64,000 nt of DNA from Clostridia bacterium (GTDB lineage Bacteria; Bacillota; Clostridia; Oscillospirales; CAG-272). A program made the position numbers and the translations under genes. Location of the stretch: contig JAFOEU010000055.1 in NCBI GenBank assembly GCA_017387685.1, positions 89,989 to 153,988 of the forward strand, written 5' to 3'. The notes below the pieces were generated by a model. The model worked only from the letters and a program-made list of their open reading frames with translations. It made no database searches and had not been told where the DNA came from. Below are positions 3,008 to 53,180 of the stretch, in pieces; within the stretch, counting starts at the first letter, position 1, and each line of letters opens with the position of its first letter.

Positions 3008-4093
3008 ATGAGCAGAGTATATAACTTTTCCGCAGGTCCTTCCATGCTTCCCATTCCCGTTCTTGAGCGCGCGGCGGCAGAAATGCTTGAGTACGGCACA
3101 AGCGGTATGTCCGTTGCCGAGATGTCGCATAGATCAAAGGATTTCGAGCCCATCATCGCAAAGGCAGAGGCTGATCTGCGCAAGCTTATGAACATTCCCG
3201 ATGACTACGCCGTCCTCTTCCTTCAGGGTGGAGCTTCGACTCAGTTCGCCGCAGTACCCCTCAACCTTCTCCCCGTTGGCGGAACTGCTGACTATATCGT
3301 TTCGGGTCAGTTCTCGGGCAAGGCTTACGAGGAAGCTAAGAAGTACGGCGACGTTCGCCTTGTTGCCACATCCAAGCCCGACGGATTCTCCTATATCCCC
3401 GAGGTAAAGCGCGAGGATATCAATCCCGATGCCGCTTACGTTCACATTTGCTATAACAACACCATTTTCGGTACTAAATATAACTACATCCCCGATACCG
3501 GCGACGTTCCGCTCGTTGCCGATATGTCCTCCTGCATCATCTCCGAGCCCGTTGACGTAACTAAATTTGCCGTTATCTACGCGGGCGCGCAGAAGAATAT
3601 GGCTCCCGCGGGTATGACTCTCGTCATCGTCCGCAAGGATCTGCTTGGTAAGGCTCGTCCCGAGTGCCCCTCGATGCTCGATTGGAATATAATGGCTGAG
3701 AACGGCTCGATGTATAACACTCCCCCCTGCTACACCATCTATATGGCGGGACTCGTCTACGAGTGGATCGAATCGCTCGGCGGTCTTGAGGTTATGAAGG
3801 AGATGAACGCGAAAAAGGCGGCTCTGCTTTACGATTACCTCGATTCGCAGGACTATTACATCGCTCCCGTAAGAAAGGATTGCCGTTCGATGATGAACGT
3901 AACCTTCGTCACAGGAAACGCAGACCTCGACAAGAAATTTGCCTCCGAAGCTGAAAAGGCGGGACTCAAGAACATCAAGGGCCACCGCGTAGTCGGCGGT
4001 ATGCGCGCCTCGATCTACAACGCAATGCCCTACGAGGGCGTCGAAGCGCTCGTCGCGTTTATGAAGGACTTTGCAAAGAACAACCCCAAGTAA
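3008..4093 (+). CDS. serC: phosphoserine aminotransferase
   Basis: The N-terminus MSRVYNFSAGPSMLPIPVLERAAAEM and the 361-aa length are typical of SerC. The RBS is AAGGAG. Confidence 0.92.
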   Translation: MSRVYNFSAGPSMLPIPVLERAAAEMLEYGTSGMSVAEMSHRSKDFEPIIAKAEADLRKLMNIPDDYAVLFLQGGASTQFAAVPLNLLPVGGTADYIVSGQFSGKAYEEAKKYGDVRLVATSKPDGFSYIPEVKREDINPDAAYVHICYNNTIFGTKYNYIPDTGDVPLVADMSSCIISEPVDVTKFAVIYAGAQKNMAPAGMTLVIVRKDLLGKARPECPSMLDWNIMAENGSMYNTPPCYTIYMAGLVYEWIESLGGLEVMKEMNAKKAALLYDYLDSQDYYIAPVRKDCRSMMNVTFVTGNADLDKKFASEAEKAGLKNIKGHRVVGGMRASIYNAMPYEGVEALVAFMKDFAKNNPK

Positions 4094-4105: not shown

Positions 4106-5272
4106 ATGAAGAATATCAAGTTAATGAATAAAATCGCCGCTTGCGGTACCGATATTTTTGACCGCGCGGTATATAACGTCGCTGACGACTGTGCGGCGCC
4201 CGAGGCGATAATGGTTCGCTCCGCCGCGCTTCACGATATGGAATTCAACCCCGAGCTTCTCGCGATCGCGCGTTGCGGTGCGGGTGTCAACAATATTCCG
4301 ATCGACCGCTGCACCGAGGCGGGAGTTGTAGTTTTCAACACCCCCGGCGCGAATGCGAACGGCGTTAAGGAGCTCGTTATCTGCGCGCTGATGCTTGCAT
4401 CGCGTGACGTTATCGGCGGCGCAAATTGGTCCGAAACGCTTACAACCGACGTTGCAAAGACGGTAGAGAAGGGCAAATCCGCTTTCGCAGGCTGTGAGCT
4501 TCGCGGTAAGACTCTCGGAGTTATCGGTCTCGGCGCGATCGGAGCAATGGTCGCAAACGCCGCGATCGACCTTGGTATGAAGGTTATCGGCTACGACCCC
4601 TACCTGACCGTTGACGGAGCGTGGAGAATTTCCCGTGCGGTAGGCCACGCGGTCACAACCGACGAAATTTTTGAAAAGAGCGATTATATCACCCTCCACG
4701 TTCCCGCTGTTGAGGCAACGAAGGGTATGATCCGCAAGGAAAATATTGATAAGATGAAGGATGGCGTCAAGATCATCAACCTTGCGCGCGCGGATCTCGC
4801 GATCGCGGCTGATATCAAGGACGCAATCGCGGCGGGCAAGATCTCGGCGTACGTCACCGACTTCCCGACCGAGGAAACCCTCGGTGTCAAGGGCATCGTT
4901 AATATCCCCCACCTTGGTGCATCCACGGGTGAGAGCGAGGATAACTGCGCGATCATGGCGGCAAATCAGCTCGTTGAGTTCCTTTCCACGGGTAATATCA
5001 AGAATTCCGTCAACTTCCCCGCGATCGATCTTCCTCCCCACGACGGCAGAAACGTCCTTGTCCTCCACGCAAACGTACCCGCGACCATCGCAAAGATCAC
5101 GACCGCCGTTGCGGAAAAGGGCGTCAACATCGAGCACCTTTCCAATAAATCCCGCGGCAACAACGCTTGCACACTCCTTGCCCTCGCCGTCGGCACCACC
5201 GACGCAGAGATCGCCGAAATGAAGAAGGCTATCGAAGCAAACGCAGGCATCTGGAGAGTAGTCGTTATTTAA
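4106..5272 (+). CDS. serA: D-3-phosphoglycerate dehydrogenase with a C-terminal ACT-like domain
   Basis: 2-hydroxyacid dehydrogenase NAD site GVIGLGAIGAMVA. The protein is 388 aa and the gene lies directly downstream of serC. Confidence 0.88.
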   Translation: MKNIKLMNKIAACGTDIFDRAVYNVADDCAAPEAIMVRSAALHDMEFNPELLAIARCGAGVNNIPIDRCTEAGVVVFNTPGANANGVKELVICALMLASRDVIGGANWSETLTTDVAKTVEKGKSAFAGCELRGKTLGVIGLGAIGAMVANAAIDLGMKVIGYDPYLTVDGAWRISRAVGHAVTTDEIFEKSDYITLHVPAVEATKGMIRKENIDKMKDGVKIINLARADLAIAADIKDAIAAGKISAYVTDFPTEETLGVKGIVNIPHLGASTGESEDNCAIMAANQLVEFLSTGNIKNSVNFPAIDLPPHDGRNVLVLHANVPATIAKITTAVAEKGVNIEHLSNKSRGNNACTLLALAVGTTDAEIAEMKKAIEANAGIWRVVVI

Positions 5273-5575
5273 GTGCAGAGTTAAGAGTGCAGAGTGCAGA
5301 GTTGAGGTGGATTTTCAAGCTCCGCTTGAAAATCATTGGTGCTTTAATTTTGTGCGGTGCTGATGCAATTTACTGCTGTGCTGAAATACAGAGAATAAAA
5401 TAAAAATCTCGGATATTTCGAAGCTTCGCTTCGGATATCCGAGATTTTTTAATTTGTTATGACTTTGGCTATGTGAAATTTAATCAGCACATCACAAAAT
5501 TATTAATATGGAATTTTCGCCACGGCGAAAATTTCCCTTCAACTCTGCACTCTGCACTCTTAACTCTGCACTTGA
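5273..5575. repeat. complete foldback element filling the serA / lipoprotein convergent spacer
   Basis: 5273-5305 is the exact reverse complement of 5539-5571 (33 bp of GTGCAGA-type heptamers). Junction hairpins lie at 5310-5335 and 5511-5535. A nested inverted repeat surrounds the central terminator. Confidence 0.9.
5402..5450. terminator. bidirectional intrinsic terminator
   Basis: AAAAATCTCGGATATTTCGAAGC-TTCG-CTTCGGATATCCGAGATTTTTT, with an A-run and a T-run flanking a long stem. Confidence 0.85.
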
Positions 5576-12734: not shown

Positions 12735-13583
12735 ATGCATATTAATATCAATATCGGTACAAGTGAAAAGGATTTCAACACCGAAAAGAAGAAAAAGCTC
12801 ACACCCGAGCAGAAGACGAAGATCAAAAATGCGGTAAAATCGGGTTATGGAAAGCTCCGCGTTGCCGCGGGCAGACTTTATTCGACCGTTGAGGACAAGG
12901 TCTTTGACGGCAGATGCTTCCTCTCCGAGCTGAAAGAGGGGATCCTTGAAGACGTTGCTGCCGTCCGTGAGCGAGACCCCGCGGCGAGAAGCGACATTGA
13001 GGTCATGCTTCTCTATTCGGGCGTTCACGCGATGCTCGCATACCGCGTGGCGCATAAGCTTTACGTCAATGAAAAATTTCTCCCCGCGAGAGCGGTTTCA
13101 CAGCTTGCGCGATTCCTGACGGGAATTGAGATCCACCCCGGCGCGCAGATCGGTAAGCGACTTATGATCGACCACGGCTCGGGCGTCGTAATCGGCGAGA
13201 CCTGCATCATCGGCGACGATTGCACGATCTATCAGGGCGTAACCCTCGGCGGTACGGGTAAGGACACGGGCAAGCGACACCCCACACTCGGCAATAATGT
13301 AATGGTCGGCTCGGGCGCAAAGGTCCTCGGACCGTTCAAGATCGGCGACGGCGCGAAGATCGCGGCGGGCGCGGTGGTACTCAAAGAGATCCCCGCGGGC
13401 GCGACTGCAGTCGGCATCCCCGCGAAGGTAGTGCGCCGCAAGGGCGAACGCGTTGAGGAACAGCTCGACCAGATCCACATCCCCGACCCCGTATCGCAGC
13501 AACTCGGAGAGCTTGAGGCGAAGATAGCTGAACTTAAGAGCGAGATCGAGGAGCTCAAGAAGGGCGAGGAAAGTGCAGAGTGA
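12735..13583 (+). CDS. cysE: serine O-acetyltransferase with N- and C-terminal extensions
   Basis: RERDPAARS and hexapeptide repeats (IHPGAQIGKRLMIDHGSGVVIGETCIIGDDCTIYQGVTLGG). The RBS is AAGGAG. The last codons and the stop lie inside the heptamer repeat. Confidence 0.88.
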   Translation: MHININIGTSEKDFNTEKKKKLTPEQKTKIKNAVKSGYGKLRVAAGRLYSTVEDKVFDGRCFLSELKEGILEDVAAVRERDPAARSDIEVMLLYSGVHAMLAYRVAHKLYVNEKFLPARAVSQLARFLTGIEIHPGAQIGKRLMIDHGSGVVIGETCIIGDDCTIYQGVTLGGTGKDTGKRHPTLGNNVMVGSGAKVLGPFKIGDGAKIAAGAVVLKEIPAGATAVGIPAKVVRRKGERVEEQLDQIHIPDPVSQQLGELEAKIAELKSEIEELKKGEESAE

Positions 13584-13741
13584 AGAGTGCAGAATGCAGA
13601 GTTAAGGAGAATTTCCTTGCCTGCGGCTGCGGAAATTTTCAATTCTGATATAAACTCAACTCAAACTTTATAATAAAATTATTTTTCGCTTCAGCGAAAA
13701 ATTACCGTAACTCTGCACTCTGCACTCTGCATTCTGCACTG
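13573..13741. repeat. complete foldback element (GTGCAGA arms) between cysE and the GDPD gene
   Basis: Left heptamers lie at 13573-13607 with a hairpin to 13640. The right hairpin is at 13681-13703 and CTCTGCA heptamers at 13711-13741. Confidence 0.85.
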
Positions 13742-23025: not shown

Positions 23026-23150
23026 TCGGCTTCGCCGAGTGATAATCTCGCTTCGCGAGAGTGATAATCCGCCTGCGGCGGAGTGATAATTTCCGCTGCG
23101 CGGAAAATAAAGGTGAATTTTCTCGCCTTCGGCTCAAAAATTATTAAATT
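23026..23150 (+). repeat. repeat arm: 3x AGTGATAAT + mini-hairpin units, then AATAAAGGTGAATTTT and a degenerate hairpin
   Basis: TCGGCTTCGCCGA GTGATAAT CTCGCTTCGCGAG AGTGATAAT CCGCCTGCGGCGG AGTGATAAT TTCCGCTGCGCGGAA. Confidence 0.8.
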
Positions 23151-23230
23151 ACGGGAATTAAGTAATATTTTTAGTCTCTTTATACTGCGCCGTCCCCTAC
23201 AAGCTTTGGGTGAAGATTTAATTGAAATAT

Positions 23231-23264
23231 AAAAACGGAGCAACGCCAAAAAGACGTTGCTCCG
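23231..23264 (-). terminator. intrinsic terminator of fba
   Basis: On the minus strand: CGGAGCAACGTC-TTTTTGG-CGTTGCTCCG followed by TTTTT. Confidence 0.8.
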
Positions 23265-23273
23265 CAAACGAAA

Positions 23274-24233
23274 TTAAAGGGTATTGGAAGAGCCGAGAAC
23301 GTTGACGATCTTGTGGCGGACCATCTTCTTAACTTCCTCACGAGCAACCTTGAGATACTCTCTGGGGTCGAACGCTGCGGGGTTCTCGTTGAATACGCGG
23401 CGGATACCCGCGGTCATAGCGAGACGGATGTCGGAGTCGATGTTGATCTTACAAACAGCCATCTGAGCTGCGCGGCGAAGCTGCTCCTCGGGAATGCCTA
23501 CTGCATCGGGGAGCTGACCGCCGAGGGCATTGATCTCTGCAACGTATTCCTGGGGAACGGAGGATGCGCCGTGGAGAACGATGGGGAACTCGGGAAGACG
23601 CTTGCCGATCTCTTCAAGAATGTCAAAACGGAGAGGAGGAGGAACAAGGATGCCCTTCTCATTTCTGGTGCACTGTGCGGGAGTGAACTTATATGCGCCG
23701 TGGGAGGTACCGATGGAGATAGCGAGGGAGTCAACGCCGGTGCGGGTTACGAAATCCTCAACCTCTTCGGGACGGGTGTAGGAGGAGTGCTCAGCTACAA
23801 CGTCATCCTCAACGCCTGCGAGAACGCCGAGCTCGCCCTCAACAACGCATCCGCGTGCGTGAGCGTACTCAACGACCTTCTTGGTGAGAGCGATATTGTC
23901 TTCGTAGTCGAAGTGAGAACCGTCGATCATAACGGAGGTAAAGCCGCCGTCGATGCAGGACTTGCAGATCTCGAAATCTGCGCCGTGGTCAAGGTGAAGA
24001 GCGAAATCAACGCCGCTGTCCTCAGCTGCTGCGCGAGCGAGGCCCATGAGGTATGCGTGCTTAGCATACTTACGAGCGCCTGCGGAAACCTGAAGAACTA
24101 CGGGGGACTTCTCCTCTGCAGCTGCCTCGGTGATCGCCTGGATAATTTCCATGTTGTTAATGTTGAAAGCGCCGATAGCATAGCCGCCGGCATAAGCCTT
24201 CTTGAACATTTCCTTGGTTGTTACAAGTGCCAT
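23274..24233 (-). CDS. fba: class II fructose-1,6-bisphosphate aldolase
   Basis: The N-terminus MALVTTKEMFKKAYAGGYAIGAFNINNMEIIQAI, followed by LHLDHG. The protein is 319 aa and the RBS is AAGGAG. Confidence 0.92.
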   Translation of the reverse strand: MALVTTKEMFKKAYAGGYAIGAFNINNMEIIQAITEAAAEEKSPVVLQVSAGARKYAKHAYLMGLARAAAEDSGVDFALHLDHGADFEICKSCIDGGFTSVMIDGSHFDYEDNIALTKKVVEYAHARGCVVEGELGVLAGVEDDVVAEHSSYTRPEEVEDFVTRTGVDSLAISIGTSHGAYKFTPAQCTRNEKGILVPPPLRFDILEEIGKRLPEFPIVLHGASSVPQEYVAEINALGGQLPDAVGIPEEQLRRAAQMAVCKINIDSDIRLAMTAGIRRVFNENPAAFDPREYLKVAREEVKKMVRHKIVNVLGSSNTL

Positions 24234-24487
24234 TTTAAATCTCCTTGTGAGTTAATTTATTTCCACTCTATATTATACACTTTTTTTGTTAAGAAATCAA
24301 GATTTTCGGGGAATATTGTTTGGATATTTGAGAAAAAAACAGAAAAATCCCGCAATATGACGGGATTTTGGACAGAGCGCCATCTGTAGGCGAATTTTTT
24401 TATCTTAATTATATTTAGCACTTGGTTTTGCCCAGACAAGATCGAGAGCTTCTGTTCAGGTAATATTTAATGAGTGTTACAAAAATT

Positions 24488-24757
24488 TTACTCAGAAATA
24501 GCCTCTGTCAACATTTTTACTGCAAGCGAAAAGCCTTTGATAAATGAAACTTCCGCCTCGGTTAATGAGATCTCTGTGTGACAGGTACGAAGCCGATCGA
24601 GAACTTGTTTTCCGTCCGCGTCGAGCTTGTTCCATAGAATATTATAATAAGCATCGACCTTTTTATTCAACTCTCTTATTTTCTCATCGTCAGCATCTGT
24701 TTTATCTTTTATAGGGTGGATGTCTCCGCGCCAGAGTTCGGACAGTGTCTCTTTCAT
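24488..24757 (-). CDS. hypothetical 89-aa protein (resembles a small Firmicute DUF family from memory, unverified)
   Basis: The RBS is GGAGG. The protein is helical and charged. It is preceded by leader L2. Confidence 0.55.
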   Translation of the reverse strand: MKETLSELWRGDIHPIKDKTDADDEKIRELNKKVDAYYNILWNKLDADGKQVLDRLRTCHTEISLTEAEVSFIKGFSLAVKMLTEAISE

Positions 24758-24986
24758 TTTTCCGCCTCCAATACAAAAAGTGCGCAGCCGAAGCCGCGCA
24801 CCGAAAAACGCAAACTCCGATTGCTGCTACACAAACCGAAGTTAGATCTCAACCTTTTGGGTTCACTCCAACCGCGTGGAATCTGCGTTTTTGCCGATTT
24901 CATACGAATGGAGTGTTCGCCAAAAAAGGGTATAGTTATACAACTATGCCAAAAGATAGGAGATCATTTTATTCAGTTTGTGTAGC
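24758..24986 (-). promoter_or_regulatory. structured 5' leader L2 with an intrinsic terminator (paralogue of L1)
   Basis: Promoter TTTACA-17-TATAAT (24993-25021). Closing helix UUGCUACACAAAC / GUUUGUGUAGCAG. Terminator GUGCGCGGC-UUCG-GCUGCGCAC-UUUUU (24774-24802). Confidence 0.55.
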
Positions 24987-25116
24987 AAATATATTATAGC
25001 ATATTTTGGGCACTTTGTAAACACTTAATTGAAATTTTAGCGTAGTTTATAAAGTTTAACAAAAAGAAAATTCCCGCCGAAGCGGAAATTTTCTATATGC
25101 AAAATTATAAAAAGGA

Positions 25117-25145
25117 TTGACAAAATATAAAAACCGGTGTATAAT
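25117..25145 (+). promoter_or_regulatory. promoter of the candidate antitoxin sRNA
   Basis: TTGACA (25117-25122), a 17-nt spacer, then TATAAT (25140-25145). Confidence 0.65.
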
Positions 25146-25151
25146 AATAAC

Positions 25152-25237
25152 GTAGGAGCACCGATACGGTTGCTTCCTTACATGATTATCAAAAAGATAA
25201 CCGCAGTGTTGGTAGCAGGGCGGTTATCTTTTTTTGT
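25152..25237 (+). ncRNA. candidate antisense sRNA (type I antitoxin-like)
   Basis: It runs from the promoter at 25117 to the shared hairpin AGATAACCGC...GCGGTTATCT and its T-run (25195-25236). It is complementary to the 3' end of the toxin mRNA. Its 5' module CGUAGGAGCACCGAUACGGUUGCUUCC resembles the toxin 5' UTR. Confidence 0.5.
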
Positions 25238-25313
25238 TTTTAAAACAGGTTATAATGGCAATAATAAGCATAGCGATCTTAATAAGATCGTCCCATGTAA
25301 TATATTCTTCCAT
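25224..25313 (-). CDS. 29-aa hydrophobic peptide MEEYITWDDLIKIAMLIIAIITCFKNKKR (type I toxin / holin-like toxin candidate)
   Basis: Not in the ORF track because it is under 60 aa. The RBS GGAGGGAGG is sequestered in a 9-bp hairpin (25321-25342). It has its own promoter, TTGACA-17-TATAAA, at 25422-25450. The stop codon lies inside the shared terminator stem. Confidence 0.6.
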   Translation of the reverse strand: MEEYITWDDLIKIAMLIIAIITCFKNKKR

Positions 25314-25421
25314 AATACCACCTCCCTCCATACGGAGGAAGGCAAAAAAGATTACACTTCCTCCGAATTGAGAGGAAGCAACCGCACCGATATGGTACTC
25401 CTACGGGCTTTCGCCGAGTAT

Positions 25422-25450
25422 TTTATAGCACACTTGATATTTTTTGTCAA
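25422..25450 (-). promoter_or_regulatory. promoter of the toxin mRNA
   Basis: On the minus strand: TTGACA, a 17-nt spacer, then TATAAA. Confidence 0.6.
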
Positions 25451-25514
25451 TAAAAACGTTATGATAAGTAAAAAAGAAATGAAGGAGCAAAAATCTCCCG
25501 CAAGGGGAGATTTT

Positions 25515-25738
25515 ACTCCTTCCGAACAGCCGCCGGGGCGGCGTCTGTTCGAAGCGCGGAGGGAGTTTCGCCGTCTGCGGACGGCGACTTAAGGCTCTGC
25601 CTTAAGAAACCGCAAGTTTTTGAAAAAACTTGACTAAAACTTTCCCGCTATCTTTATTTCGCCGCAGGCGAATTATCACTCTCGCGAAGCGAGATTATAA
25701 CTCTGCCGTAGGCAGATTATCACTCGCGCTCTGCGCGA
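25515..25738 (-). repeat. composite repeat (reverse orientation) ending in ATTATCACT + mini-hairpin units
   Basis: ACTCCTTCCGAA...TTCGAAGCGC..GGGAGTTTCG-CCGTCTGCGGACGG-CGACTTAAGG...AAAACTTTCCCGCT, then the array at 25657-25738. The mazF ORF ends inside the array. Confidence 0.8.
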
Positions 25739-26339: not shown

Positions 26340-27149
26340 ATGAATTACTGGACACAATCAAAGGATAATATATACGTTGCCGCTCATCGCGGATGGAGCA
26401 CCGTTTACCCCGAAAATACTCTCCTCGCATTTAAAAAGGCTATCGAGATCGGTGTTGACCAGATCGAGACCGACGTTCGCATCACCCGCGACGGCGAGCT
26501 TGTCTGCATCCACGATGCCGCCGTCGACCGCACCACAAACGGCACGGGTAAGGTCTGCGACAAGACTCTCGCCGAGCTCAAAACTCTCGACGCAGGCTCT
26601 TGGAAGGGCGCGGAATTCGCGGGCGAGCGCATCCCCACCTTCATCGAGTTTATGGAGCTCGTCAAGGATCATCCCACGATGACCCTCGATATTGAGCTTA
26701 AGGAATACCCCGTTGACGGACGTGACGAGATCGCATACGAGGTCTGCGACCGCGTGCTTAAGATCATAGATGATTACGGCTTTACCGACCGCGTGGTCAT
26801 CAACACCTTCAACGGCAAGCTCCACGAATATATGGAAGAGAAGTACGGCTCGAAATACCGCCGCCACATCTACTACCCCCTCACCCACATGGGCAAGGTC
26901 AAGCGCGACCCCTACACCTCCTCGGCGTACTGCTGCTGTATGTTCCGCGCACTTTACAGCCCGATCAATATGGCGACAAAGGAGGAATTCGACCGTATGA
27001 TCGCTCTCGGAGTCCGTCCTTGGGCACCCGCGGGAGTCAAGACTCAGGAGCACGTTGACGAGGTCATCGCCTGCGGCGGCGAGCTTATCACTTGCAATAA
27101 TCCCGATGAGATCCTTGCATTTTTGAGAAACAGAGGAAAGCATAATTAA
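26340..27149 (+). CDS. glycerophosphodiester phosphodiesterase (second copy)
   Basis: ORF 25869..27149 is trimmed to the ATG at 26340, which has a GGAGG RBS and the promoter TTGACT-17-TATAAT (about 26284-26312). Contains the motifs AAHRGWSTVYPENT and ETDVRITRDGELVCIHD. Confidence 0.85.
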   Translation: MNYWTQSKDNIYVAAHRGWSTVYPENTLLAFKKAIEIGVDQIETDVRITRDGELVCIHDAAVDRTTNGTGKVCDKTLAELKTLDAGSWKGAEFAGERIPTFIEFMELVKDHPTMTLDIELKEYPVDGRDEIAYEVCDRVLKIIDDYGFTDRVVINTFNGKLHEYMEEKYGSKYRRHIYYPLTHMGKVKRDPYTSSAYCCCMFRALYSPINMATKEEFDRMIALGVRPWAPAGVKTQEHVDEVIACGGELITCNNPDEILAFLRNRGKHN

Positions 27150-27208
27150 GTGCAGAGTTCAGAGTGCAGAATGCAGAGTTAAGGTAAATTTTCGCGTTGC
27201 GAAAATTA
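27150..27208 (+). repeat. repeat arm: GTGCAGA heptamers + TTAAGGTAAATTTTCGC-GTT-GCGAAAATT
   Basis: The arm starts on the nucleotide after the stop codon. The AATTTTGTGCGGTGCTGAT module also seen at 5350 follows it. Confidence 0.85.
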
Positions 27209-31005: not shown

Positions 31006-31012
31006 TAAAGAT

Positions 31013-31048
31013 CAACCGCATTCCGAAAAAAGGAATGCGGTTGTTTTT
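31013..31048. terminator. bidirectional terminator
   Basis: CAACCGCATTCC-GAAAAAA-GGAATGCGGTTG followed by TTTTT. Confidence 0.8.
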
Positions 31049-34430: not shown

Positions 34431-34645
34431 AGGGGATAATAGAGATAAGTTGCTCCCGAAGGGAGCAGTGATAATCTCGCTTCGCGAGAGTGATAATCCG
34501 CCTTTCGGCGGAGTGATAATTTGCCTGCGGCAAAGTAAAGGTAAATTTCCTCGCTTTGCTCGGAAATTATCGAATGATTTATTTACTTTCAGCGAAGCTG
34601 AAATTATCACTCTCGCGAAGCGAGATCATCACTGCCCCTCGGGCA
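34431..34645. repeat. foldback element with AGTGATAAT + mini-hairpin arms (about 4 left units, 2 right units)
   Basis: The left arm is 34431-34535. The junction hairpin AAGGTAAATTTCCTCGC-TTTG-CTCGGAAATT is at 34536-34568. The right arm TTTCAGCGAAGCTGAAATTATCACTCTCGCGAAGCGAGATCATCACT is at 34587-34645. Confidence 0.8.
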
Positions 34646-42548: not shown

Positions 42549-43058
42549 CGAGATCGGGTTAATCTCGCTTCGCTCGAGTTATAATCCGCCTTCGGCGGAG
42601 TGATAATCGCCTTGCGGCGAGTGATAATTTGCCTTCGGCAAAATGAAGGTAGATTTTCGCCGAGGCGAAAATCTTTGATTTAAATAATAAGCGATGTTAC
42701 AAATAAGCCTTCCCCGGCGGGGAAGGTGGCAGCCCTTGCGGCTGCCGGATGAGGGGATCGCCGTCTGTACCGCAGACACGACAAGCGTATATGCATTTTC
42801 ATATAATTGAAAATTTCCGCCTCGGCGGAAATTCACCTTTATTTTTCGCGCAGCGAAAATTATCATTCTCGCGAAGCGAGATTATCATTTTGCCGAAGGC
42901 AGATTATCACTCGCCGCAAGGCGATTATCACTCCGCCGAAGGCGGATTATCACTCGAGCAAAGCGAGATTATCACTCCGCCGAAGGCGGATTATCACTCG
43001 AGCGAAGCGAGATTATCACTCCGCCGAAGGCGGACCATCACTCGAGCGTCAGCGAGAT
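42549..43058. repeat. large foldback element inside the ABC transporter operon (3 left units, structured core, 9 right units)
   Basis: Left words start at 42577, 42599 and 42620, with the junction hairpin at 42645-42673. The right junction hairpin is at 42809-42841. Right words ATTATCAYT start at 42859, 42881, 42903, 42924, 42946, 42968, 42990, 43012 and 43034. Confidence 0.9.
42686..42790 (+). ncRNA. conserved structured motif, copy 1 (function and functional strand unknown)
   Basis: H1 is CCTTCCCC-GGC-GGGGAAGG (42708-42726). H2 is GGCAGCC-CTTGC-GGCTGCC (42728-42746). GGATGAGGGGATCGCC follows. H3 is GTCTG-TACCG-CAGAC (42763-42777). Confidence 0.4.
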
Positions 43059-43074
43059 AGAAAGGACTTCAAAA

Positions 43075-43743
43075 ATGAGCATTCAACTAAAAAACGTATC
43101 ATACAGCTACCGCGGCAAGTACCAGACCGTTCGCGCGGTGAATTCGGTCAGCTTTGATTTTGACGAGGGCAAGGTCTACGCCGTAATCGGCAAATCCGGT
43201 TCGGGAAAGACCACTCTCCTCTCGCTTATGGCGGGGCTTGATCTGCCGACCGAGGGTGATGTGATCGTTGACGGAAAATCGACCCGCAAATGGGATCGAA
43301 ACCGTATGCGCCGCGAGGCTGTCTCGGTAATTTATCAGAATTATAACCTTTTTCCGCTTTTGAGCGTAATTGAAAATATCCGCTACCCGCTTGATCTGCG
43401 CAAGGTAAAGCGCGCGAAAGCCGACGAGATTGCACGCCGTATGCGCGAGCGCGTCGAGCTTTCCGAGTCATACGACGACCGCCTCCCCGCGCATCTTTCG
43501 GGCGGTGAGCAACAGCGCGTCGCAATCGCACGCTCCCTCGCGCAGGGCAGTAAGATCATACTCGCAGACGAGCCGACGGGTAATCTTGACACCAAAAACA
43601 CCGAAAATATCGTAAATATCCTCAAAAAGCTTGCCCACGAGGACGGTGCGACCGTTATTATCGTCACACACGATCTCGCCGTCGCCGAAAAAGCCGACGT
43701 GGTTCTCCGTATGAGCGACGGTGAACTTGTTGACAAAGCTTGA
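43075..43743 (+). CDS. ABC transporter ATP-binding protein (MacB/LolD-type)
   Basis: Walker A GKSGSGKTT, signature LSGGEQQRVAIARSL, Walker B IILADEPT. Confidence 0.9.
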   Translation: MSIQLKNVSYSYRGKYQTVRAVNSVSFDFDEGKVYAVIGKSGSGKTTLLSLMAGLDLPTEGDVIVDGKSTRKWDRNRMRREAVSVIYQNYNLFPLLSVIENIRYPLDLRKVKRAKADEIARRMRERVELSESYDDRLPAHLSGGEQQRVAIARSLAQGSKIILADEPTGNLDTKNTENIVNILKKLAHEDGATVIIVTHDLAVAEKADVVLRMSDGELVDKA

Positions 43744-49299: not shown

Positions 49300-49455
49300 G
49301 ACAAGACAGAGTCGCAGCTTGCCGCAGGCAAGTGTGAACTTCTTGAAAAAGTTCGATCAAAACTTACCGCTGCTGTTGTCTTTTATTTGATTGAAAATTT
49401 CCGAGCAAAGCGAGGAAATTCTCCTTAACTCTGCACTCTGCATTCTGCACTCTGT
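49300..49455 (-). repeat. composite repeat (reverse orientation) ending in CTCTGCA heptamers
   Basis: CTTGCCGCAGGCAAG...GAACTTCTTGAAAAAGTTC...AAAACTTACCGCTGCTGTTGTCTTTTATTTGATTGAAAATTTCCGAGC-AAAG-CGAGGAAATTCTCCTTAA, followed by the heptamers. Confidence 0.8.
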
Positions 49456-49473
49456 ATTTTGCCTCCTCAAATA

Positions 49474-52357: not shown

Positions 52358-52588
52358 AGTATGACCTCCTTTGAGTGTTGAGATAATTGTATCACAAAAC
52401 GGAGGAAAATGCAATAGGGTAGGGGAAATATCTCGCGAAGCGAGAGTTATAATCTCGCTTACGCTCGAGTGATGATCCGCCTTGCGGCGGAGTGATAATC
52501 TCGCTTCGCTCGAGTGATAATTTGCCTGCGGCAAAGTTAAGGTGGATTTTCGCCGAGGCGAAAATCTCGATTTTTATTAAAATAATTT

Positions 52589-52695
52589 GCAAGTCTGTCA
52601 TATCTGCGGTACAGACTTCGATCTCCTCATCCACCACTGCCGTGGTCCCCCTTCCCCGCTGGGGAAGGCTGATTTTGAACATCGCTTATCATTTC
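52589..52695 (-). ncRNA. conserved structured motif, copy 3 (inverted relative to copies 1 and 2)
   Basis: The reverse complement reads GCCTTCCCC-AGC-GGGGAAGG, then GACCAC-GGCA-GTGGT, then GGATGAGGAGATCGAA, then GTCTGT...ACAGAC. H2 has a different sequence but still pairs. Confidence 0.4.
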
Positions 52696-52824
52696 TAAAC
52701 TTCGTTAAGTACGCTAATCATATCAAGAAAATGATAAAAACAAAATATATTTACAACTATTTTGCTAATTATGAGTAAGGAAATATAATTATCGAGTCTT
52801 TCTGCGGTGCTATATCACTATAAC

Positions 52825-52916
52825 ATATGTTCGCAGTTGCTATATAAGCCTTCCCCAGCGGGGAAGGTGGCAGCCCTTGGGGCTGACGGATGAGGAGACC
52901 GAAGTCTGTACTAGAC
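52825..52916 (+). ncRNA. conserved structured motif, copy 2
   Basis: CCTTCCCC-AGC-GGGGAAGG (52849-52867), GGCAGCC-CTTGG-GGCTGAC, GGATGAGGAGACCGAA, GTCT-GTACT-AGAC. Confidence 0.4.
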
Positions 52917-53147
52917 GAGGAATAGAGGCACTTATTATTTAATAAATATCGAAGATTTTCGCCGAGGCGAAAATCAACCTTAACTTTGCCGCAGGCAAAT
53001 TATCACTCGAGCGAAGCGAGATTATCACTCCGCCGAAGGCGGATTATCACTCTCGCGTAAGCAAGATTATCACTCCGCCGCAAGGCGGATTATCACTCTC
53101 GCGTAAGCGAGATTATCACTCCGCCGCAAGGCGGATTATCACTAAAT

Positions 53148-53180
53148 AAAATCAACCGAGCCTCGGCTCGGTTGATTTTA
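53148..53180 (-). terminator. intrinsic terminator of ftsH
   Basis: AAAATCAACCGAGCC-TCGG-CTCGGTTGATTTT. Confidence 0.8.

Follow-up and report, generated by a model that had tools for sequence, protein, structure and literature searches.

Compound roles as transcription terminators and as protectors of transcript 3' ends are established for REP elements. Pneumococcal BOX, Neisseria Correia and enterobacterial ERIC elements are composites of optional modules with inverted symmetry, which form stable transcribed structures and affect the expression of neighboring genes. In mycobacteriophages, start-associated sequences and stoperators are motifs of 13 to 17 bp that are not known to reach high copy numbers in host chromosomes. 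Gut-1 is an orphan candidate noncoding RNA known only from human gut metagenomes (Weinberg et al. 2010, PMC2864571).

The motif analyzed here lies in a 64,000-nt stretch of DNA from a Clostridia bacterium, which we refer to as a whole as the window. The window is ordinary chromosome, with genes for DnaB, ribosomal protein L9, FtsH, fructose-bisphosphate aldolase and SpoIIR, and its sequence is identical to one ENA gut-type metagenome contig. We call the strand that reads in the order hairpin 1, hairpin 2, GGATGAGG the layout strand and its reverse complement the opposite strand. The repeating unit, or arm, comprises an invariant hairpin (CCTTCYCC/GGRGAAGG, 8 to 9 bp), a linker of 1 to 3 nt, a variable hairpin and then GGATGAGG. 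The preliminary description of this DNA had reported three copies, and both the hairpin-1 pattern GCCTTCCCCRGCGGGGAAGG and the core GGATGAGGRGAYCGMMGTCTGTAC match three sites, all as reported, whereas shuffles of the window give an expectation of 0.00 to 0.01 matches. A covariance model with 46 related copies as input, searched against the window with filters off, likewise recovered these three copies at 73.8 to 81 bits (E <= 1e-26), with a runner-up match of 14.7 bits. The copies had been described as a structured motif of ~100 nt; each is not a self-contained RNA of that size but one arm of a composite, many-copy palindromic repeat whose arms normally form inverted pairs. Both loci in the window are nested palindromes. 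Locus A (42560-43058) runs from a left array through an AT-footed terminal hairpin, a single arm, a conserved tail and another terminal hairpin to an inverted array, and locus B (52437-53144) is framed likewise but encloses two divergent arms, between which lies a 176-nt AT-rich spacer. The parts of both loci, followed by arrays that lack arms, are as follows; all copies and array loci are intergenic, lying between open reading frames (ORFs).

42560-42650, plus strand: locus A left array, a tandem repeat of 22-nt units (short hairpin and AGTGATAAT) reading inward; Gut-1 (RF01706) 30.4 bits
42651-42674, no strand: locus A inner terminal hairpin AGATTTTCGCCGAGGCGAAAATCT, an AT-footed palindrome, terminator-like on both strands
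42706-42770, plus strand: arm copy 1, with hairpin 1 at 42707-42726 (hairpin-1 pattern), hairpin 2 at 42728-42746 and the GGATGAGG core at 42747-42770 (match to GGATGAGGRGAYCGMMGTCTGTAC); 73.8 bits
42771-42810, plus strand: locus A family-specific tail CGCAGACACGACAAGCGTATATGCATTTTCATATAATTGA, conserved as YGCAGAWAWGACAAGCGTAYAT-TTTTWAATAAAAT in 30 close copies
42811-42834, no strand: locus A outer terminal hairpin AAATTTCCGCCTCGGCGGAAATT, with CACCTT after it
42843-43058, plus strand: locus A right array, ~9.6 units of ATTATCACTC plus hairpin, inverted relative to the left array; Gut-1 26-32.5 bits, minus strand
52437-52535, plus strand: locus B left array; Gut-1 20 bits
52544-52567, no strand: locus B terminal hairpin GGATTTTCGCCGAGGCGAAAATCT
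52609-52670, minus strand: arm copy 3, with hairpin 1 at 52650-52669 (hairpin-1 pattern), hairpin 2 (ACCAC/GTGGT) at 52633-52646, the core at 52609-52632 (match to GGATGAGGRGAYCGMMGTCTGTAC) and its tail at 52568-52608; 79.8 bits
52671-52846, no strand: locus B spacer, asymmetric and AT-rich, between the divergent arms, with a Y block (GTTTAGAAATGATAAGCGATGTTCAAAATC) beside copy 3 and an X block (CTATATCACTATAACATATGTTCGCAGTTGCTATATA) beside copy 2
52847-52911, plus strand: arm copy 2, with hairpin 1 at 52848-52867 (hairpin-1 pattern), hairpin 2 at 52869-52887 and the core at 52888-52911 (match to GGATGAGGRGAYCGMMGTCTGTAC); 81 bits
52953-52975, no strand: locus B terminal hairpin AGATTTTCGCCGAGGCGAAAATC, with AACCTT after it
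52985-53144, plus strand: locus B right array, ~6.4 units; Gut-1 22.7-36.1 bits, minus strand
23029-23140, plus strand: armless array with a terminal hairpin, left member of a pair bracketing 23.1-25.7 kb
25650-25730, plus strand: armless array, right member of the pair begun at 23029
34445-34640, no strand: inverted pair of arrays with terminal hairpins, armless

The element shares with REP, BIME and REPIN sequences an extragenic position, many copies per genome (three in the 64-kb window), an arrangement in inverted doublets that form a long hairpin, and a mosaic build with other modules. As in those systems, copies are frequent at gene 3' ends or between the genes of an operon, structure is kept while sequence drifts, and relatives differ in the copies they carry. 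However, the arm is a two-hairpin unit of ~60 nt, whereas a REP is a single hairpin of ~35 nt; the GTAG-type 5' guide at the foot is absent, the arm feet being AGCC/GGCT and TGG/GGATGAGG; and REP families are normally lineage-specific, whereas the core of this motif is nearly identical in Clostridia, Proteobacteria and phages. No RAYT (Y1 transposase) was found among the listed Pfam matches of 59 ORFs of the window and 109 phage ORFs. Given the missing GTAG foot, the lack of a RAYT among those matches and the broad distribution, we regard the element as REP/BIME-like in its working and not as a member of the family. BOX, Correia and ERIC elements are similar in their modular build and inverted symmetry but have no sequence relationship to it and are not known outside one genus or family. 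Like start-associated sequences and stoperators, the phage arms sit in short intergenic gaps in one orientation with respect to the genes, often ~12 nt before a ribosome-binding site; those elements, however, are short sequence motifs and not two-hairpin modules. The motif is an interspersed palindromic repeat and not a new ribozyme-like RNA.

Hairpins 1 and 2 fold in each window copy on both strands, with modest z-scores of -2.1 to -2.7. The exchange of hairpin 2 among copies was correctly described: it is GGCAGCC/GGCTGCC in copy 1 and ACCAC/GTGGT in copy 3, so that sequences differ and pairing is kept, and copy 2 has GGCAGCC/GGCTGAC with one G.A mismatch. The third hairpin is kept in the close family, but its conservation does not extend beyond it. 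An earlier proposal of two mutually exclusive folds did not survive alignment, in which the GTCT/RGAY hairpin is broken in relatives with A or G at the Y position. We searched Rfam 15 at gathering and E-value thresholds with the window and 31 related loci. The whole window gave zero matches at gathering thresholds, and E-value mode gave zero for the motif itself; the related loci likewise gave no match to the motif, and a tRNA/tmRNA search found none. The motif therefore has no family in Rfam 15, in agreement with the preliminary description, and the hammerhead, twister, riboswitch and tRNA-like models were all unmatched.

The flanking arrays do resemble a known model. They score 20 to 36 bits against Gut-1 RF01706 (best 36.1, 32.5 and 30.4), under the gathering score of 50; the arrays are accordingly Gut-1-like but fail the threshold, and the resemblance is confined to the flanks, so that the motif is not Gut-1. 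Gut-1 and the arrays both consist of short GC hairpins in series, with UUCG-like loops and a constant A/U-rich linker (GUGAUAAU in the window arrays, GUGAAAU in Gut-1), and both come from the human gut. The GGAUGAGG/CCUCAUCC core was absent from the Gut-1 alignment as published and from the flanking sequence supplied with it. These sub-threshold relatives of an orphan motif are here placed in a genomic context, where they form optional outer parts of a larger element. A scan with GATTATCACTC gave 30 matches against 1.15 expected. The terminal-hairpin module of the AGATTTTCGCCGAGGCGAAAATCT type closes most arms in related genomes. Copy 1 is a solo arm, with a truncated Y-type block upstream at 42689-42705. 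Next to the right array of locus A are the ribosome-binding site and start codon (ATG) of the ABC ATPase gene at 43075.

Several further observations concern the surroundings of the arrays. Contigs from five other samples, compared with window positions 42993-43075, start within 19 to 220 nt upstream of the ABC ATPase gene (L152-L156); assemblies are therefore interrupted at these arrays. The polysaccharide deacetylase gene has a good extended -10 promoter (TTGCAT-N17-TGTGATACAAT; 52395-52440, minus strand), situated between the gene and the locus B left array, so that the locus B element sits between this promoter and the ftsH terminator at 53154-53173. The array pair at 34445-34640, upstream of spoIIR, presents as an "empty" frame of the composite element. 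The Gut-1-like arrays at 23029-25730 bracket 2.6 kb with a fructose-bisphosphate aldolase gene (23274-24233, minus strand) and a DUF6809 ORF (24497-24760, minus strand). The same 2.6-kb stretch holds a small hydrophobic ORF at ~25235-25320 (minus strand) and complementary segments at ~25150-25230 and 25340-25410, which together resemble a type I toxin-antitoxin pair.

We looked for relatives with an exact-pattern scan of one genome per species, which returned 28 loci. Three of these (L017, L029 and L030, the latter two viral) are chance matches within coding DNA; the remaining 25 hold ~44 copies in metagenome-assembled genomes (MAGs) of gut Clostridia from human, goat, sheep and roe deer. At least 25 arms lie on 12 contigs of one related MAG, whose syntenic genes are 83 to 93% identical to those of the window, and a single 63-nt arm sequence is identical at five recovered loci. 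Nearly every locus is an inverted pair, either divergent (head-to-head, as at locus B) or convergent (tail-to-tail); cores are 210 to 370 nt apart in head-to-head pairs and 33 or ~128 nt apart in tail-to-tail pairs. The head-to-head spacer is asymmetric, with X and Y blocks conserved over 19 pairs. In close relatives the outward end of every arm carries the common tail and terminal hairpin, with arrays or other hairpin repeats optional, and some relatives have long insertions within hairpin 2. Since arms are set as inverted pairs, their GGATGAGG strands complement each other, which allows a pair to fold up as a single long hairpin. The window pair folds in this way with an energy of -144 kcal/mol as RNA (z = -11.6) and -73 kcal/mol as DNA (z = -10.2); in this fold the 24-nt GGATGAGG...GTAC strands pair mutually, and hairpin 1 of one arm pairs with hairpin 1 of the other.

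The presence of the element varies between relatives. A pair in a related MAG lies between two convergent genes where the window equivalent (31008-31042) is a simple terminator only, and a second pair was located at a synteny break (L014). In a comparison with miniature inverted-repeat transposable elements (MITEs), which have terminal inverted repeats and a target-site duplication, the terminal hairpins and ...CCTT ends are inverted repeats; no direct duplication was seen at 13 pairs, and the single filled-versus-empty comparison is not clean. In MAG JAZRGT01 (L001-L016), hairpins of the form GGCTGAG-N15-20-CTCAGCC followed by CGAATATTATAAGG replace the 22-nt arrays (e.g., L007 at 2830-2870 and 3310-3350). 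Tail-to-tail pairs of five ruminant-gut MAG loci (L021, L024, L027, L010 and L006) are flanked by the inverted repeat TTCAAATTTTGATTTGTCGG / GACAAATCCCAATTT and have a conserved inner region of 115 nt with a good promoter-like TTGAAA-N17-TAATAT.

A wider pattern, in which only hairpin 1, the linker and GGATGAGG were fixed, matched more than 120 stretches in metagenomes and more than 120 in viral contigs, with ~7 expected by chance for the metagenome scan (a rough estimate). The pattern fixed 22 bases, which limits what its matches say about conservation outside those bases. Features that it did not demand are present all the same: complementarity of hairpin 1 and of hairpin 2 within each arm, a downstream ...CCCTCATC strand that pairs with GGATGAGGG, and two more hairpins that mirror hairpins 1 and 2. 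Because MAFFT alignments placed two classes of hairpin 2 out of register, a fault inherited by the covariance model, we counted hairpin pairs by script instead. Hairpin 1 is nearly invariant, with 1427 of 1439 pairs formed. The sequence of hairpin 2 takes 117 different forms over the 172 unique arms, and 969 of 1128 hairpin-2 pairs (86%) are Watson-Crick.

By BLAST, a GC-rich form of the motif occurs in replicons of Rhizobium, Shinella, Azospirillum, Xanthomonas and Aeromonas, unannotated throughout; up to 30 places in one Shinella replicon have a match, and one Xanthomonas copy lies between sufB and sufC. No match was found by BLAST in 5,426 genomes of E. coli. The viral contigs that bear arms encode terminase, portal, tail and scaffold proteins and are thus genuine tailed phages. 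As many as 14 arms, all in one orientation, occur within 14 kb (L276), and arms are sometimes in head-to-tail tandem. In tandem phage arms (L276, L161 and L264), hairpin 1 and the linkers are constant and hairpin 2 differs in each unit. We judged 41 arms that appeared to lie inside ORFs of GC-rich contigs to be spurious, a product of crude ORF calling. Literature searches by sequence strings and on RIME/REP returned no specific description of the motif.

Wobble pairs at first appear to favor the layout strand, on which G.U pairs number 26 against 9 A.C; however, a single position, which has G.A in most copies, accounts for the bulk of the excess, and wobble pairs therefore do not settle the strand. 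Gene context is more informative. Complete tail-to-tail elements (median 145 nt) have gene ends on one side in 37 of 63 cases and on the other in 41 of 63, whereas gene starts number 8 to 9 of 63. In the close family, a gene on the opposite strand ends on the GGATGAGG side of 30 of 49 arms, compared with 8 of 49 for the same strand. In phages, an opposite-strand gene starts just past hairpin 1 in 71 of 147 arms, compared with 10 of 147 for a same-strand start after GGATGAGG. In the close family, the opposite strand continues after hairpin 1' with C-U-U-A-U-U-U-A, at a T fraction of 0.51 against a background of 0.25. At least four T in the next 8 nt follow hairpin 1' in 68% of family copies, in a tract that is interrupted and is absent in phage copies. 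A terminator scan called 42726-42708 (minus strand) for copy 1 and 52650-52668 (plus strand) for copy 3. The earlier suggestion that hairpin 1 looks like a terminator on the opposite strand thus has the better-supported orientation. Gene context, together with the U-rich tail, makes the reverse complement of the layout the most probable sense of any transcript, in which a CU-rich strand would be followed by the variable hairpin and then by a very stable hairpin with a U-rich tail. The pattern has exceptions. An upstream co-oriented gene exists for window copy 2 only, which lies downstream of ftsH, and not for copies 1 and 3; several arms stand directly ahead of genes in the layout orientation; and the right array of locus A, next to the ABC ATPase ribosome-binding site, must be transcribed in the other sense. 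The phage tail after hairpin 1' is G-rich and not U-rich, and termination therefore cannot be a universal role.

The element most likely ends or stabilizes transcripts, and a function as ribozyme or riboswitch is less probable. The full proposal is that of a modular palindromic repeat, REP/BIME-like (REPIN-like) and dispersed through intergenic DNA, that works as terminator and transcript protector; we judge its chances to be about even. The element would act on opposite-strand transcripts, presenting the CU-rich strand, hairpin 2' and then hairpin 1' with its C-U-U-A-U-U-U-A tail. Transcription would be stopped or attenuated there, and the remaining block of stable 3' hairpins would shield the upstream message. 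Where both arms are transcribed, the resulting long duplex would be a natural target of double-strand RNase. The repeat may multiply and reshuffle as non-autonomous DNA. In this lineage each arm is extended outward by the conserved tail, the AT-footed terminal hairpin and the optional 22-nt Gut-1-like arrays.

The exchange of hairpin 2 had been called hard to explain without selection on structure in RNA or single-stranded DNA, and indeed the structure of hairpin 2 is kept where its sequence is not. However, template switching at quasi-palindromes during replication can copy one arm from the other and change both sides in one step, and may give both changes here. The kept hairpin thus means either that the hairpin-forming state matters or that a mutational mechanism maintains it, and selection on RNA is not implied. 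The gene-orientation bias is the better argument for a role at the RNA level.

The same opposite-strand reading could describe a stand-alone, trans-acting small RNA, which we think rather unlikely. Its CU-rich seed GAUCUCCUCAUCC, which resembles an anti-Shine-Dalgarno sequence, would precede a middle hairpin and hairpin 1' as terminator, and the Gut-1-like array may be its 5' part. An order of seed, hairpin, and GC hairpin with U-rich tail does fit a small RNA, as does the occurrence of the UUCG-type array loops in the inward-reading orientation, and Gut-1 has itself been proposed as a noncoding RNA (PMC2864571). A scan and inspection by eye of the X/Y spacer and the regions outside the arms nevertheless gave no convincing upstream promoter, only wrong spacings or unconserved hexamers, and the locus A array adjoins a coding gene. 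Dozens of copies per genome and inverted pairing are both unusual for small RNA genes, and the seed is complementary to the partner arm, by which it would be sequestered.

It is unlikely, too, that the hairpins matter solely as single-stranded DNA, whether as substrates of a hairpin-recognizing transposase or recombinase or as self-perpetuating quasi-palindromes with no RNA role. The dyad symmetry of the pairs is perfect, head-to-head and tail-to-tail alike, the window pair has its strong DNA fold, and the wobble pairs, when hairpin 2 is counted without its variable second pair, give no clear strand signal. The variation in presence among relatives and the pair found where a rearrangement breaks synteny also speak for this reading. 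Against it stand the strong gene-orientation bias in phages (71/147 versus 10/147) and the T tract that borders complete elements on one side (10 of 11 aligned cases). Moreover, no associated enzyme appears among the listed Pfam matches of the window and the phage ORFs; for the window, the 25 listed of 64 Pfam families include no transposase, REP-associated or other. Y1 transposases are also few in Rhizobiales (PMC6006769), which argues in the same direction.

A 5' leader on the layout strand (riboswitch, translational element or self-cleaving ribozyme) is very improbable. A ribosome-binding site and ATG do follow 15 to 60 nt past the motif in L011/L026, L019 and L015/L022, some G.U pairs have the layout orientation, and GGAUGAG is similar to the hammerhead CUGAUGA; however, the genes that follow are unrelated to one another, the neighbors being housekeeping or phage genes; none of the Rfam ribozymes or riboswitches matched; and most gene context favors the other strand. 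We rejected a riboswitch or other cis leader on the ground that the neighbors do not form one gene class. A hammerhead was likewise rejected: where the model's gathering score is 48.5, the best relative reached 16.3 bits (E = 0.85), GAAA is missing where it is needed, GGAUGAGG pairs with its own complement, and the window had no hit. No evidence of self-cleavage or ligand sensing was found. Sub-threshold matches to the hammerhead model, like those to the Rsm models, were judged to be noise.

It is barely plausible that the arms serve as decoys for CsrA or another RNA-binding protein of wide conservation, since, although GGAUG is part of the preferred CsrA site, GGAUGAGG is conserved across phyla and there are sub-threshold matches to the Rsm clan (rsmX 18.7 bits, RsmW 14 bits), these matches have E-values of ~0.5 to 4, the GGA lies outside hairpin loops, and the GGAUGAGG strand is paired with the partner arm.

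The conservation of a two-hairpin core across phyla and phages, in a motif absent from Rfam 15, is truly puzzling. The conserved core sequence hints at a partner. We tentatively suggest, while considering it doubtful on balance, that the order hairpin 1, U, hairpin 2, GGAUGAGG defines an undescribed, very widespread structured nucleic-acid element, that recognition by a conserved cellular or phage-encoded partner explains its sharing among Clostridia, Proteobacteria and tailed phages, and that the composites in the window are one lineage's elaboration of it. If so, a single two-hairpin module fills intergenic space in distant bacteria and their phages, and the repeat may set transcript ends and stability in gut anaerobes. 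The repeat would also matter for annotation, as it breaks assemblies and seeds spurious ORFs.

The window also holds what looks like a second class of intergenic paired repeat. Tandem heptamers (AGTGCAG, 4.4 copies) are paired with their reverse complement (ACTCTGC, 4.4 copies) at a distance of 100 to 240 nt, at the 3' ends of convergent genes. Such arrays pair at 5272-5302 with 5542-5572 and at 13572-13602 with 13710-13740, and occur also at 27149-27179 and 49428-49462. Further heptamer arrays, of GTTGCTA, AGTGACT, CCTTTTC, AGTTACT and AACTAGC, lie at 1093, 10263, 10816, 46364 and 48125.
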